Of a DNA stretch of 64,000 nt, positions 31,584 through 37,606 are shown piece by piece. Made by a program: the position numbers and the translations under genes. The DNA lies in contig JBDKER010000009.1 of assembly GCA_039795165.1 (NCBI GenBank), forward strand, positions 19,699 through 83,698. The letters are read 5' to 3'. This DNA comes from Verrucomicrobiota bacterium (GTDB taxonomy: Bacteria; Verrucomicrobiota; Verrucomicrobiia; Verrucomicrobiales; V1-33). The notes below the pieces were generated by a model. That model worked only from the letters and a program-made list of their open reading frames with translations, was not told the origin of the DNA and ran no database searches. The first letter of the stretch is position 1, and each line of letters begins with the position of its first letter.

Positions 31584-32894
31584 TCACCTTCCGGGCCACC
31601 ATTGATCGAGACGCTCGCGGAGCCGGGTGACGTCGTCCGGTTTGGCGGGCGCGAGATTCTGCGTTTCGTGGGGGTCGGTGGAGAGATCGTACAGTTCGAC
31701 GGGGGCATCGGGTTCGTTGGGACCCGGGAGCATGAGTTTCCAGTGGCCGTTGATGGTCCAGCGCCAGCGGAGGCTCGTGGCTGGCTTCTGGAGGTCGACG
31801 GCATTGTGGGTGAAGCAGGAACCGAAGACCCCGTTGCGCTGGGTGACGGCTGCGGTGTCGCGCAGGTCGAGGCCGCGCATGGATTCCGGCGGGGTGATGC
31901 CAGTGCAGCGGAGCAGGGTGGGGGCGAGGTCGATGGAACTGACGGGCACATCCGGCTGGGCGGGCGTGATCTTCCCCTTCCAGCGGATCATCATGGGGGT
32001 GCGGAGGCCGCCATCATACTGGGATTGCTTTGAGCGGGGTGCGTAGCGCGGGTTGCCGGGCGACTGGATCCAGCCATTGTCGGCGACGTAGGCGACGATG
32101 GTGTTTTCATCGAGACCGGATGATTTGAGATGGTCCATGAGCTGACCGATGGTTTCGTCGAACCATTCGACCATGGCCCAGTAGCGGGCGACGTGGAGGG
32201 ACGGGGTTTTGCCGCGGTATTTCTGGAGGAGCCGCTGGGGAGGCGTATGGGGATCGTGCGGAAGCAGGGGAGCGTACCAGACAAAGAACGGTTTCTGCTG
32301 TTCGCGGGCGGTCCTGATGAAATCGTAGATCGGCTGCATCGACTTGCGCCCGATTTCGAGGCCTTCGTCGCCATGGCGGCCACCGCTTTGCGGGTCGCCT
32401 TTGGTCATCCCGTGGGTGAAGCCGCCGCGCTGGAAATTGCCCTGCCACCATTTGCCGGTCTGCAGGGAAAGGTAGCCCTGCCTGCCGAGGATGCGGGGAA
32501 GCGAGGGCGCTTCGTCCATGAAGCCGTTCATGATTTCGCGCCCTGCGGCGAACTGCGGATTGCGGAGTCTAGGAACGCCGGGCTGATCGCCTTTGCCGAG
32601 CGGAGGATCGTTGGAAGTGATGCGGTGCTGGTGGGGGTACTGACCGGTCAGAATCGTGGCGAGGCTGGGACAGCACAGACTCGACGTGACGTAGCCGCGG
32701 CGGAAACATAGGCTTTCCGCAGCAAGCCGGTCGAGATTCGGCGTCTGGATATGCGGGTGACCCATGAAGCCGTAGTCGGTCCACGCATGGTCATCCGAGA
32801 CAATCAGAACTACATTCGGCTGATCCGCGGCCTGCCCACGGGGATGGATCAGCAGCAGAGCGATTCCAAGCAGCAGAAGAAAGGGGAGACGCAT
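31584..32894 (-). CDS. sulfatase-family protein with non-canonical active-site motifs
   Basis: Signal [22 protein letters not shown] and [11 protein letters not shown]. The formylglycine motif reads CCPSL (Leu codon CTC at 32662-32664) instead of CxPxR, and GKWW replaces GKWH. Confidence 0.8.
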
Positions 32895-32953: not shown

Positions 32954-34282
32954 TCAGATGGGCTTGCGGGGAAAGAGAAAGAAATAGGCAGCGACGGCAG
33001 CACCCGCGAAAAGGAGGACGAGGCCAAGCCACGTGAGGAAGCGTCCCGTCCATTTGGCGCGGTCGTTCATGCGTTCCGCGGGATTGAGGAACGGGGTCGC
33101 CAGAGCGAGTAGAAAGGCCGTCATGAGGGGGACAATGACGGGAGACCCTCCCAGCAGGAGGATGGCCGGGAAGAGGAACACTCCGATGAGCAGCAGAAAG
33201 AGCATGAGGAGGCATCCCTTGTCGGCCGTGTCGTGCACAGGCGTGCCCTTTTCCGGCACTGGCGGGTTCGGAACCGGTGCGGGGGAGTCGGTGGAGGAAT
33301 CAGACGAAGAGGGCGAGGAAGGTGTAGTATTCATGCGGTCGCCTGTGCGCAGCGGATGGCCACTGAGGAACGCGCCGGCGGGGAGACGGCGTCGGCCTTC
33401 CGCCTGAATTTCGTGGATCGTCAGGGAACCCGAGCCGCAGGCCACCCGGATGCCGTCCGGTCCCGCGTGCAGGATCGTTCCCGGCAGCGGACAGCCTGTG
33501 GCTTCGGAATCATGGCCGGCCGGAGGAAAGATCTTGGCTCGCGAGCCATCGGGCAGTGCCGTGGTGGTGCCGGGCCATGGATCGAAGGCGCGGATGCGGC
33601 GTTCCAATTCGGCGGCCGGACGGTTCCAGTCGATTTCCCCGTCGCTCCGCGTGAGCTTTCCGCAGTGCGTGGCGAGTCGGTCATCCTGAGGCTGCGGGAC
33701 GACCGTTCCCGCAGCAATCGCAGGAAGAATGGCCTGGAGTGCCGCCGGAGTCAGTTCCGCGAGGCGGTCGTGCAGCGATCCCCCGGTTTCCGTGGCACTG
33801 AGGGGAATGGCCATGGTGTGAAGGATGTCACCCGTATCAAGTCCTGCGTCCATCTGCATGACGGTGATGCCCGATTCCGCGTCGCCGGCAAGGATGGCCG
33901 ACTGAATGGGAGAAGCGCCGCGGTGACGGGGCAGCAGGGAGGCGTGGAGATTGATGCAGCCGAGCCGCGGAATCGTCAGTATGGCCTCGGGGAGAATCTG
34001 ACCGTAGGCCATCACGATCATGAGGTCGGGTTCCAGCGCGGCAATCTGTCCGGGAATCTGGCGGATGCGTTGCGGCTGGAGGACAGGGATTCCGGCGGCC
34101 AGGGCGGCTGTCTTCGTGGCCGGTGGGGTAAGGATCTGTTTCCGGCCCACCGGCTTGTCCGGCTGGCAGATCACGGCAGCGATGGTGAGGGCAGGATCGG
34201 CCAGAAGAGCCTTGAGCAGAGGGAGACCGATGTCGCCGGTCCCGGTGAAGATGACGCGCATGGAAGGAATTGGTGCAGGCAT
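32954..34282 (-). CDS. fmt: methionyl-tRNA formyltransferase fused in frame to a C-terminal Ser/Pro linker and three predicted TM helices
   Basis: (MPAPIPS)MRVIFTGTGDIGLP..., INLHASLLPRHRGASPIQ, and about 310 aa of canonical Fmt ending ...FLSGHPLRTGDR. The same frame then runs on with no stop for 125 aa (NTTPSSPSSSDSS... then hydrophobic stretches). An alternative start is at 34261. Confidence 0.85.
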   Translation of the reverse strand: MPAPIPSMRVIFTGTGDIGLPLLKALLADPALTIAAVICQPDKPVGRKQILTPPATKTAALAAGIPVLQPQRIRQIPGQIAALEPDLMIVMAYGQILPEAILTIPRLGCINLHASLLPRHRGASPIQSAILAGDAESGITVMQMDAGLDTGDILHTMAIPLSATETGGSLHDRLAELTPAALQAILPAIAAGTVVPQPQDDRLATHCGKLTRSDGEIDWNRPAAELERRIRAFDPWPGTTTALPDGSRAKIFPPAGHDSEATGCPLPGTILHAGPDGIRVACGSGSLTIHEIQAEGRRRLPAGAFLSGHPLRTGDRMNTTPSSPSSSDSSTDSPAPVPNPPVPEKGTPVHDTADKGCLLMLFLLLIGVFLFPAILLLGGSPVIVPLMTAFLLALATPFLNPAERMNDRAKWTGRFLTWLGLVLLFAGAAVAAYFFLFPRKPI

Positions 34283-34394
34283 GGCGCGATCCCAATCGCA
34301 AAATGCAGTTCTGTCCGGCTTCTGCAATTGGCCACGAAGAAGTCTTGCCGCAGGGGATGGACCGCGCCATGGTCCCGAAGATTCCCCAAGACAC

Positions 34395-35099
34395 ATGCAG
34401 CCCGAACTGGAACAAATGCTCATTCTGCAGGACAAAGATCAGCACCTGCGGAGACTGCGGCTGGAACTGAAGAAACTGCCGGCCGAAGAAGAACGGGCGA
34501 AGGCAAAACTCGCCGGAGATACTCAGGCCGTGCAGGTCGCCAAGGAAGCGGTGCAGCACAACGAGGTGGCCGTGAAGAATCTCGAACTCCAGATCCAGAC
34601 CCGCCGCGACACCATCACAAAACTCAAGATCCAGCAGTTCGAGACCCGCAAGAATGAGGAATTCAAGGCGATCGGCCACGAAATCGAGCGCTATACCGCC
34701 GAAGTCGGCCGACTCGAGGACGACGAACTCGCGCTCATGGAAAAAGGCGAATCCCTCAAGGCAGCCCATGCCGCCGCAGTGGCCGGGCTCAAGGCAACGG
34801 AATCCCTCGTGGCAGAAGAACTGGGACGCATCGGAGAACGGAGAAACAACCTGAACAGCCAGGCCGCGGAATTCGAAACGGTGCGGGCGGCTCAGGCCAC
34901 GAAGCTTCCCGAGGAACTGCTGGAACGCTACGACCGCATCTTCCAGCACCGTGGCGATGCCGCCGTGGTGCCGCTCGAGCACGGCGTCTGCGGAGGCTGT
35001 CACATGAAGGTGACCGCTTCCTGCGTGGCCACGGCCAAAACAAGACGGGTCCTCACAACCTGTCCGAACTGCGCACGGTTCGTCTACCTCGGCGACTGA
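34395..35099 (+). CDS. coiled-coil C4 zinc-ribbon protein (DUF164/COG1579 type)
   Basis: MQPELEQMLILQDKDQHLRRLRLELKKLP..., a long coiled coil, then GVCGGCHMKV...CPNCARFVYL zinc ribbon. Confidence 0.75.
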   Translation: MQPELEQMLILQDKDQHLRRLRLELKKLPAEEERAKAKLAGDTQAVQVAKEAVQHNEVAVKNLELQIQTRRDTITKLKIQQFETRKNEEFKAIGHEIERYTAEVGRLEDDELALMEKGESLKAAHAAAVAGLKATESLVAEELGRIGERRNNLNSQAAEFETVRAAQATKLPEELLERYDRIFQHRGDAAVVPLEHGVCGGCHMKVTASCVATAKTRRVLTTCPNCARFVYLGD

Positions 35100-36232: not shown

Positions 36233-37606
36233 TTACTGCCGGAGTCCGGTGAGGAGCATCTCGGCATTGGTGGCGGTAGCCTTGATGCTGCGGATGAGCG
36301 TTTCAAGGGCCTCGCCGGCTGGCATCTGCGCCATCTGGCGCCGGATGGCACTTATGCGGCGGAATTCGTCCGGGTGGTAGAGCAGGTCGTCCTTCCGGGT
36401 ACCGGATTTCTGCACGTGGATGGCCGGGTAGATCCTCCGTTCAACGAGTTCGCGGTCGAGTTGGATCTCAAGATTGCCGGTGCCTTTGAATTCTTCGAAG
36501 ATGACTTCGTCCATGCGGCTGTCCGTCTCGATGAGGGCGGTCGCAAGGATCGTGAGGCTGCCGCCCTCCTCGACCTTGCGGGCTGATCCGAAGAACTTGC
36601 GGACCTTCTGGAGGGCATTGTGGTCGACGCCGCCGGATCCCGATGGCCCCTTGCCTCCCTGCGTGGAATTGTAGCCCCGGGCGAGACGGGTCAGGCTATC
36701 GAGCAGAATGACGACGTCGCGTCCCTTTTCGACCAGCCGTTTGCCGCGTTCGAGGACGAGTTCGGATACCTGGATGTGCCGGGAAGCCGCTTCATCGAAG
36801 GTCGAGCTAAAAACCTGGCAGTCGACCGTTTCGCGGAAATCGGTGACTTCCTCCGGCCGTTCATTGATGAGGAGAACGATGAGTTCGATTTCCGGATGGT
36901 TCCGGCGGATCGAGGCGGCGATTTCCTTGAGGAGGACAGTCTTGCCGCCGCGGGGCGGGGCGCAGATGAGACCGCGCTGACCCTTTCCGAGAGGGGACAC
37001 TATATCCACGACGCGTGGACCCACGGAGCGGGTCGATGGATTCTCCAGAATGATGCGCTCCGATGGAAAAAGGGCCGTCAGCTTGTCGAAGTGCAGAGGC
37101 GGCTGCCAATCGGTCGCAGGGACGCCTTCGATGGCGACAATCTGGTCGCTGCAGAGGCTCTTTTCTCGGGGGTCGCGCGGGGCACGGGCCGTTACTGTGA
37201 TCTCGAGACCCGGACGGAGGTTGAAGCGCCGCACCACGGGGATGGCAATGAAGACATCATCCTGGAAGGGAGCGAAATTGAAGAGGGGGTCACGGAGCAG
37301 CCCGAATCCGTCGCGCGTGATGTCGAGGATACCGGTGGCATTGATGATGGATCCCTTGCGGCTGTAATGGCAGAGGATCTCGAATACCAGCTGGTGACGT
37401 GAGCGGACGCCGCCGATGCGCAGTCCGAGTTTCGTGCCGAGATCGTAGAGGGCCTGCACCGGCATGCGGAGGAACTCGTTGAGAGAAACCGTTTCCGGAA
37501 TCGGAGGGGACTGATCCTCGGCCTGTGCGCTCCGGGGATGGCCAGGCGCGGTGTCCTCAGGCTGTGCGGGCAGTTCGGTCACTGCCGAAGGGTTTTCTTC
37601 AACCAT
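36233..37606 (-). CDS. rho: transcription termination factor Rho
   Basis: [21 protein letters not shown] aligns with the E. coli Rho N-terminus. Also an RNA-binding domain, Walker [18 protein letters not shown], and ...[13 protein letters not shown] ~40-aa acidic/Pro-rich leader is present, and the first 28 nt overlap the coaE 3' end. Confidence 0.95.

Follow-up and report, generated by a model that had tools for sequence, protein, structure and literature searches.

A 7-nucleotide deletion joins fmt to a small membrane-protein gene in one genotype of a Verrucomicrobiota bacterium

The 64,000-nucleotide (nt) stretch analyzed here (the window), from contig JBDKER010000009.1 of a freshwater Verrucomicrobiota bacterium (assembly GCA_039795165.1), carries on its minus strand a single open reading frame (ORF) at 34435..32954, running from an upstream TTG to the TGA at 32956..32954, in which methionyl-tRNA formyltransferase (Fmt) passes without an intervening stop into a hydrophobic tail. 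Comparison with related genomes revealed that the window lacks seven nucleotides at the boundary between two genes that are separate elsewhere, and the fused ORF is very probably a recent, accidental, strain-level chimera created by this deletion rather than an evolved membrane-anchored enzyme. The deletion is reproducible, the ancestral state is one of two genes, and both parts were under purifying selection before they were joined; nothing indicates selection for the fused architecture itself. The initial annotation of this DNA had described a formyltransferase continuing without a stop into a tail with three hydrophobic segments, and this is borne out by the single ORF, by a complete Fmt in the Pfam and TIGR00460 matches and by the Kyte-Doolittle profile. 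Its suggestion of a recent loss of the stop codon proved right in substance, the mechanism being a 7-nt deletion that shifts the frame and also deletes the downstream ATG.

The deletion and the ancestral gene pair

The seven nucleotides, CAGCCAT, are missing between positions 33306 and 33305 (minus strand) of the window and are present in every relative aligned, as both the DNA alignments and their gap lists show. In the relatives the fmt frame reads ...TCT TCC AGC CAT GTC TGA (…SSSHV and stop) and the small-gene frame reads ATG TCT GAT TCC... (MSDS…), such that fmt ends ...GDRMNTTPSSPSSSHV at its own stop and a separate gene of 117 amino acids (aa), starting MSDSS..., overlaps it by the 8 nt ATGTCTGA in a different frame. 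Stop/start overlaps of this kind are typical of translational coupling. The 8-nt ATGnCTGA overlap is kept in three diverged lineages, namely the window species, the L001 group (~93% identity) and L005 (84%), and in the relatives' contigs found through the tail fmt encodes 322 or 364 aa and the small gene, again separate and with the same overlap, 117 or 111 aa. In the window the native ATG of the small gene, which sat 29 nt downstream of an in-frame ATG at 33334, has lost its 'AT' to the deletion and is thereby destroyed, and fmt is brought into the small-gene frame 3 nt before its own TGA. That old stop persists at 33302..33300, out of frame, and comparison with L001 and L021 identifies it as the vestigial TGA of the ATGTCTGA overlap, now read within TCT GAT (Ser-Asp). 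By eye, the deletion flanks show no direct repeat or microhomology, and a promoter and terminator scan around the locus gave nothing above shuffled expectation.

The course of events that we propose would begin with fmt and a 117-aa three-helix membrane-protein gene lying in different frames and overlapping by 8 nt, an arrangement that persists within the species and in at least three related lineages. A 7-nt deletion immediately upstream of the overlap would shift fmt into the small-gene frame before the TGA can be read, and the same deletion would remove the ATG of the small gene. Translation from the fmt start would then yield one polypeptide of 435 aa (or 442 aa) made of an intact Fmt, a linker and the three-helix membrane module, the flexible Ser/Pro/Asp-rich linker of ~40 aa being built from the non-conserved ends of both proteins. 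Programmed frameshifting and read-through were considered and rejected, since Fmt and the tail share one frame and there is no stop to bypass.

The distribution of the two alleles among relatives bears on the age of the fusion. CAGCCAT, a separate fmt TGA and a separate small-gene ATG are found together in L001-L004 (~91-93% nt identity), in L005 (a Verrucomicrobiales metagenome-assembled genome (MAG), 84%) and in L006 (a MAG, 96%). Ten conspecific contigs from ten samples or runs (L012-L022, with L012 and L015 being the same contig; 98.2-99.9% nt identity) all keep CAGCCAT as well, and the 7-nt indel is the only gap in their alignments; several of them come from Lake Mendota TYMEFLIES samples of late June/early July 2015. 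Over 2,088 bp, L021 differs from the window by 1 single-nucleotide polymorphism (SNP) and the 7-nt indel, and over 3,592 bp L018 differs by four SNPs in addition to the indel. The corresponding proteins mirror this closeness: the conspecific Fmt P0156 (329 aa) is identical to the window Fmt through ...MNTTPSSPSS and then continues SHV, the conspecific small protein P0149 (117 aa) is identical to the window tail from SDSS onward, and both sit in the fused protein's own 90%-identity cluster. The fused architecture was absent from the conspecific, congeneric and more distant relatives examined; it was seen only in a single genotype, whose DNA copies are 100% identical. Since conspecific contigs up to 99.9% identical are unfused, the fusion is a very young polymorphism within one species.

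An assembly or sequencing error, with the true genome keeping the 7 nt and its two separate genes, would accord with the presence of CAGCCAT in all other relatives and with the rarity of the fused allele in searchable data, where exact-match scans of the JGI metagenome contigs for the fused junction and for a both-allele pattern found none. This collection is evidently without the contigs concerned, so the scans yield no allele counts. Against an error stands the recurrence of the exact 435-aa fused protein on 4 contigs, namely JGI 3300043425 (125,651 bp), an NCBI MAG (MEN9283579.1, Verrucomicrobiota bacterium), Logan SRR35180665 and Logan SRR35180403. The fused contigs match the window at 100% DNA identity over 5.4-7.3 kb, and the two Logan contigs, whose ends differ, do so over 5.4 kb including the junction; a different assembler thus recovered the same junction in each of two separate SRA runs, and the NCBI MAG has it too. 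Sample 3300043425 does not appear in the sample tables of the TYMEFLIES (Lake Mendota) paper, whereas several samples with the unfused allele do. Alignment of the window with L001 over 8.3 kb shows six other indels, all intergenic and none coding, so the assembly is not indel-prone, and short-read or homopolymer errors do not typically take the form of a clean loss of 7 nt from a non-repetitive stretch. Judged by these contig comparisons the fused junction is not an assembly artefact, and we regard an error as extremely improbable.

Composition and predicted topology of the fused protein

The fused ORF likely starts at ATG 34261 (MRVIF), the start chosen by gene callers in relatives and on the fused contig, or at ATG 34282 (MPAPIPSMRVIF..., MPAPIPS...), the predicted product being 435 aa from the former and 442 aa from the latter. 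Its Fmt part (33335..34261, -; 309 aa, MRVIF...RTGDR) has both domains of the enzyme, an N-terminal formyltransferase domain and a C-terminal one. Pfam Formyl_trans_N (PF00551) matches with E = 1.3e-38 over profile positions 3-178 of 181, and Formyl_trans_C (PF02911) with E = 6.1e-23 over positions 1-99 of 100, the latter match ending 7 residues before the junction Met. With 265.8 bits the fused protein passes the cut-off of the NCBIfam fmt equivalog TIGR00460 (201.5), and the ArnA, PurN and PurU models all fall far below their own cut-offs. The closest solved structures are the Fmt entries 5uai, 1fmt and 2fmt. The N-terminal-domain motif ...NLHASLLPRHRGASPIQ... aligns with the Fmt of PDB 5uai, and the conserved catalytic motif region (N-x-H-x-SLLPxxRG and the downstream Asp) is present, with 'cinlhasllprhrgaspiq' and 'mdagldtgdil' matching 5uai column for column. 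The catalytic roles of these motif residues are well established. By its profile and motif matches, then, the Fmt part is ordinary and complete.

Among the best 120 Fmt homologues, all are 305-369 aa long and cover 69-75% of the fused query, none (0/120) is fused or tailed, and those in the alignment end 0-18 residues past the conserved G-x-R-L/M-G motif. The literature search turned up no relevant report of an Fmt that is fused or anchored in a membrane. The initial annotation had placed the end of Fmt at ...GDR; the conspecific protein runs 13 residues further, to the stop after ...GDRMNTTPSSPSSSHV, which identifies MNTTPSSPSS (33306..33334, -), including the in-frame ATG at 33334..33332, as Fmt's own non-conserved C-terminal tail, to which unfused alleles such as P0156 add SHV and a stop. 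The Ser/Pro-rich linker described in that annotation is accordingly present, although its first 10 residues are this tail of Fmt. The deletion junction follows at 33305..33306 (-), and the sequence of the chimera that spans it is …TGDRMNTTPSSPSSSDSSTDSPAPVPNPPVPEK.

Everything after the 309-aa Fmt part amounts to 126 codons (33334..32957, -), consisting of a Ser/Pro/Asp-rich stretch of ~40 residues and then three segments that Kyte-Doolittle hydropathy marks as hydrophobic (350-372, 375-392 and 408-430 in the numbering of the 435-aa protein); the 19-residue mean reaches 3.0 in the tail against a maximum of 1.8 inside Fmt. The stretch SDSSTDSPAPVPNPPVPEKGTPVHDTADKG (33215..33304, -), formerly the N-terminus of the small protein, is acidic, Pro-rich and predicted to be disordered, as suggested by length variation in the family, net negative charge and a predicted local distance difference test score (pLDDT) of 54-65 in a model that shows no secondary structure there. 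Two GTG codons within it, at 33259 and 33238, are in frame. Predicted transmembrane (TM) helix 1, CLLMLFLLLIGVFLFPAILLLGG (33146..33214, -), opens with the family-invariant G-C motif (G40 and C41) and is followed by predicted TM helix 2, VIVPLMTAFLLALATPFL (33086..33139, -). A conserved basic loop, NPAERMNDRAKWTGR (33041..33085, -), with the motif NPxE...KWxGR (N84 invariant; P85, E87 and R98 nearly invariant), leads to predicted TM helix 3, FLTWLGLVLLFAGAAVAAYFFLF (32972..33040, -). Sequence comparison shows that the C-terminal PRKPI and the TGA of the fused ORF (32954..32971, -) retain the native stop of the small gene. The three helices are supported by hydropathy and by an AlphaFold model made with the family alignment, which places them at tail residues 39-60, 64-83 and 91-120 after the disordered N-terminus with a mean pLDDT of 73.5.

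The topology of the small protein determines where Fmt would reside. Over 24 family members the density of Lys and Arg is 0.26 in the TM2-TM3 loop, compared with 0.06 for the N-terminal region, and neither residue occurs in the TM1-TM2 turn, which is 2 residues long. Under the positive-inside rule, the basic TM2-TM3 loop is predicted to be cytoplasmic and hence the N-terminus as well. Fmt is accordingly predicted to stay in the cytoplasm, tethered to the inner-membrane face by the disordered linker of ~40 residues, and attaching a cytoplasmic enzyme to an N-in terminus is topologically harmless. Given that the fused ORF is real in the window strain, a membrane-tethered Fmt is its predicted product there.

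The tail belongs to a family of small stand-alone proteins. A search with the 126-aa tail found only such proteins, 111-131 aa long (P0001 at 1.1e-67, P0003 and P0004 at about 1e-15 to 1e-17), and a profile search of 1.84 billion representatives found 21 members, all stand-alone and 87-161 aa long (family members are numbered P0001-P0004 and P0125-P0144). The common layout is a variable acidic Pro-rich N-terminus, an invariant G-C opening helix 1, a GGxP turn, helix 2, an NPxE...KWxGR loop and helix 3, and the conserved core DKxDxGC ... GGxP ... NPxE ... KWxGR is homologous in the window tail; the start codon kept by all other family members is lost in the window protein. Differing codons in the small ORF are 26 synonymous against 0 nonsynonymous in the comparison with L001 and 36 against 7 in that with L005, a pattern by which the small ORF is a real gene under strong purifying selection. 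Foldseek of the small-protein model against PDB returned noise (best E = 5.4), and on the tail Pfam and NCBIfam gave only a TgpA_N match (E = 0.051) that, at 13 bits, stays below the cut-off of 30. The family is rare and uncharacterized.

JGI/IMG names the 117-aa members P0146, P0148, P0149 and P0158 (window 32957-33304, -) 'cytochrome b561'. The small protein shares with cytochrome b561 the character of a small helical integral membrane protein, and differs in having three helices, not four. There is no His in the helical core of the window protein or of 17 of 23 relatives and no conserved His column in the family, nor does Pfam or NCBIfam give a match. On all three counts the name is unsupported. 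At four loci (L010:3-812, L011:1-324, L023:1691-2923 and L024:1200-2432), genes of more distant members (~37-50% identity) immediately follow, in the same orientation, a gene for an ammonium transporter (Amt), and in L026 the small gene precedes a queG-like gene. The amt linkage may hint at the real function of the small protein. Outside the window's clade the small gene is not beside fmt, so the family as a whole has no functional link to formylation.

Alternative readings of the fusion

The possibility that a tethered Fmt evolved under selection to bring initiator-tRNA formylation to the membrane would be favored by the in-frame fusion, the two intact modules, the natural flexible linker and a topology that fits a cytoplasmic Fmt, as well as by a strain abundant enough to give a 125-kb contig and to recur in other runs and by the acceptance of C-terminal fusions in the formyltransferase modules of ArnA and 10-formyltetrahydrofolate dehydrogenase. 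We nevertheless hold it to be very improbable: the fusion is limited to one genotype and shows no sequence divergence, conspecific contigs of up to 99.9% identity are unfused, 0 of the 120 best Fmt homologues and 0 of the 21 family representatives are fused, and the distant relatives of the small protein are linked to amt or other genes rather than to fmt. The initial annotation had put forward this tethered enzyme and had itself named orthologues ending at the usual position before a separate gene as the outcome that would speak against it. Comparison of fmt 3' ends in related genomes gave exactly this outcome, with a separate stop and downstream gene in all orthologues, including those 99.9% identical, and the idea of an evolved tethered formyltransferase is not supported. 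A deletion that is mildly deleterious or inactivating, such that the chimera misfolds or is degraded, the strain has less Fmt or none, lacks the small protein, or both, and the allele is a transient variant, appears unlikely, although several observations lean towards it. The fused protein is found on 4 contigs, against 16 for P0149 (the exact match to the window), 46 for the near-identical P0146 and 16 for P0148; by sequence the small protein has lost its own start codon and with it the presumed translational coupling; and several bacteria can do without fmt, though they grow less well. These are countered by an in-frame fusion that keeps every conserved residue, with an Fmt 100% aa-identical to that of the unfused conspecific P0156 up to the junction, by an N-in topology that needs no export of Fmt, and by a strain that reached assemblable abundance in at least two runs.

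Separate production of the small protein, beside the chimera, by internal initiation at ATG 33334, GTG 33259 or GTG 33238 is rather doubtful. Three in-frame start-type codons do lie upstream of the conserved core, the purine-rich GGAAAAGGG ends 7 nt upstream of GTG 33238, initiation there would give a product MHDTADKGCLL... with the whole core, and N-terminal regions as short as 4 residues occur in some family members. Set against this, comparative support is absent: the junction codon that is ATG 33334 in the window is ACG in L006 (96% identical), and in all unfused relatives it falls in the fmt frame and not in the small-gene frame. The other gene starts inspected by eye at the locus have no obvious Shine-Dalgarno sequence, so the purine-rich motif is little predictive, and internal initiation would in any case leave Fmt without a stop. 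The junction ATG that the initial annotation had offered as a nested start may still serve as one, and the small gene did not originally begin there. With these alternatives weighed, the accidental chimera is the reading that we prefer, and within it the fused protein is probably made and probably active, with N-in insertion predicted. Several considerations count against our account: the support for the junction comes from assembled contigs; the two Logan runs and the JGI assembly may share one sample or library; the predicted topology depends on the positive-inside rule and hydropathy; accumulation of the chimera is projected from sequence; and a second fmt may lie elsewhere in the genome, beyond the 64-kb window, within which there is no second copy of fmt or of the small gene. 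That the fused allele encodes an active inner-membrane-anchored Fmt and is maintained or rising in the natural freshwater population is distinctly unlikely in our assessment. Were it so, it would be a natural experiment in which initiator-tRNA formylation is run from the membrane surface, with a fusion caught at birth beside its unfused parent.

Related systems and surrounding genes

Compared with canonical Fmt (TIGR00460; 1fmt, 2fmt, 5uai), the fused protein is the same two-domain enzyme, with a complete C-terminal domain and a score above the equivalog cut-off. Canonical Fmt is soluble, ~305-370 aa long and ends at its own stop, as the conspecific alleles do, whereas the window ORF bypasses that stop and adds 126 residues. 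The unfused conspecific allele (Fmt P0156 or P0147 with P0149; L012-L022) has the same gene order and both halves aa-identical, differing in that it holds CAGCCAT and hence two genes with the 8-nt ATGTCTGA overlap. ArnA (660 aa) and 10-formyltetrahydrofolate dehydrogenase (902 aa) likewise join a formyltransferase N-domain and an Fmt-like C-domain to further C-terminal domains, an architecture from which it follows that the fold tolerates C-terminal extension. These are conserved soluble enzymes with functionally linked partners, in contrast to the uncharacterized membrane module joined to Fmt in one strain here.

Small indels at overlapping stop/start junctions of co-directional genes are a well-known route to fused and split ORFs. 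The present case follows that route, with a short out-of-frame overlap and a 3n+1 deletion merging two ORFs in frame, and differs from it in nothing of kind; only the partners are notable. It is a new example of a well-known event with unusual partners, still polymorphic, and not a new system or new formylation biology. Its value lies in a clean, datable origin of a fused gene by one 7-nt deletion at an 8-nt overlap, with parental and derived alleles of one species both in public metagenomes; if the chimera is active, it would also indicate that Fmt tolerates membrane tethering. There is a practical consequence for databases as well, since the 90%-identity cluster of P0005 mixes Fmt proteins of 322-359 aa with 117-aa membrane proteins because the chimera bridges two unrelated families. 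Across such a bridge annotation might in principle spread between the families, and the case serves as a warning on chimeric protein clusters.

The locus has a shared gene order of rho, an RNase D-like gene, a CT398-like zinc ribbon gene on the opposite strand, fmt, the small gene, a sulfatase and DUF1501. Downstream of the fused ORF on the same strand lie the signal-peptide-bearing sulfatase (PF00884; 32894-31584, -), which starts 60 nt past the fused ORF's stop, then 31465-29996 (-), with DUF1501 and ThuA-like genes, and this downstream order is fully conserved with the relatives. Two long ORFs, 33233-34657 (+; 474 aa) and 33837-35003 (-; 388 aa), are antisense to or overlap fmt and its neighbor; they are not genes but spurious frames of a kind commonly left open at a genomic GC content of 62%.

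Some further observations concern the relatives themselves. The closest GTDB genome, L006 (GTDB MAG CAZSDE010000534.1, 96%), carries a block of Ns within its small gene (~320-336) and is labelled 'uncultured Akkermansia sp.', as against Verrucomicrobiales or Verrucomicrobiota bacterium on the other relatives. Among the conspecific contigs, L012, L015 and L016 share 13 SNPs within 130 bp (window 34490-34619, inside the divergent CT398-like zinc-ribbon gene) and are nearly identical elsewhere, and further SNP clusters occur at 32397-32433 (L013, L022) and at 36566-36722 (L012). These clusters look like short homologous-recombination tracts between strains.

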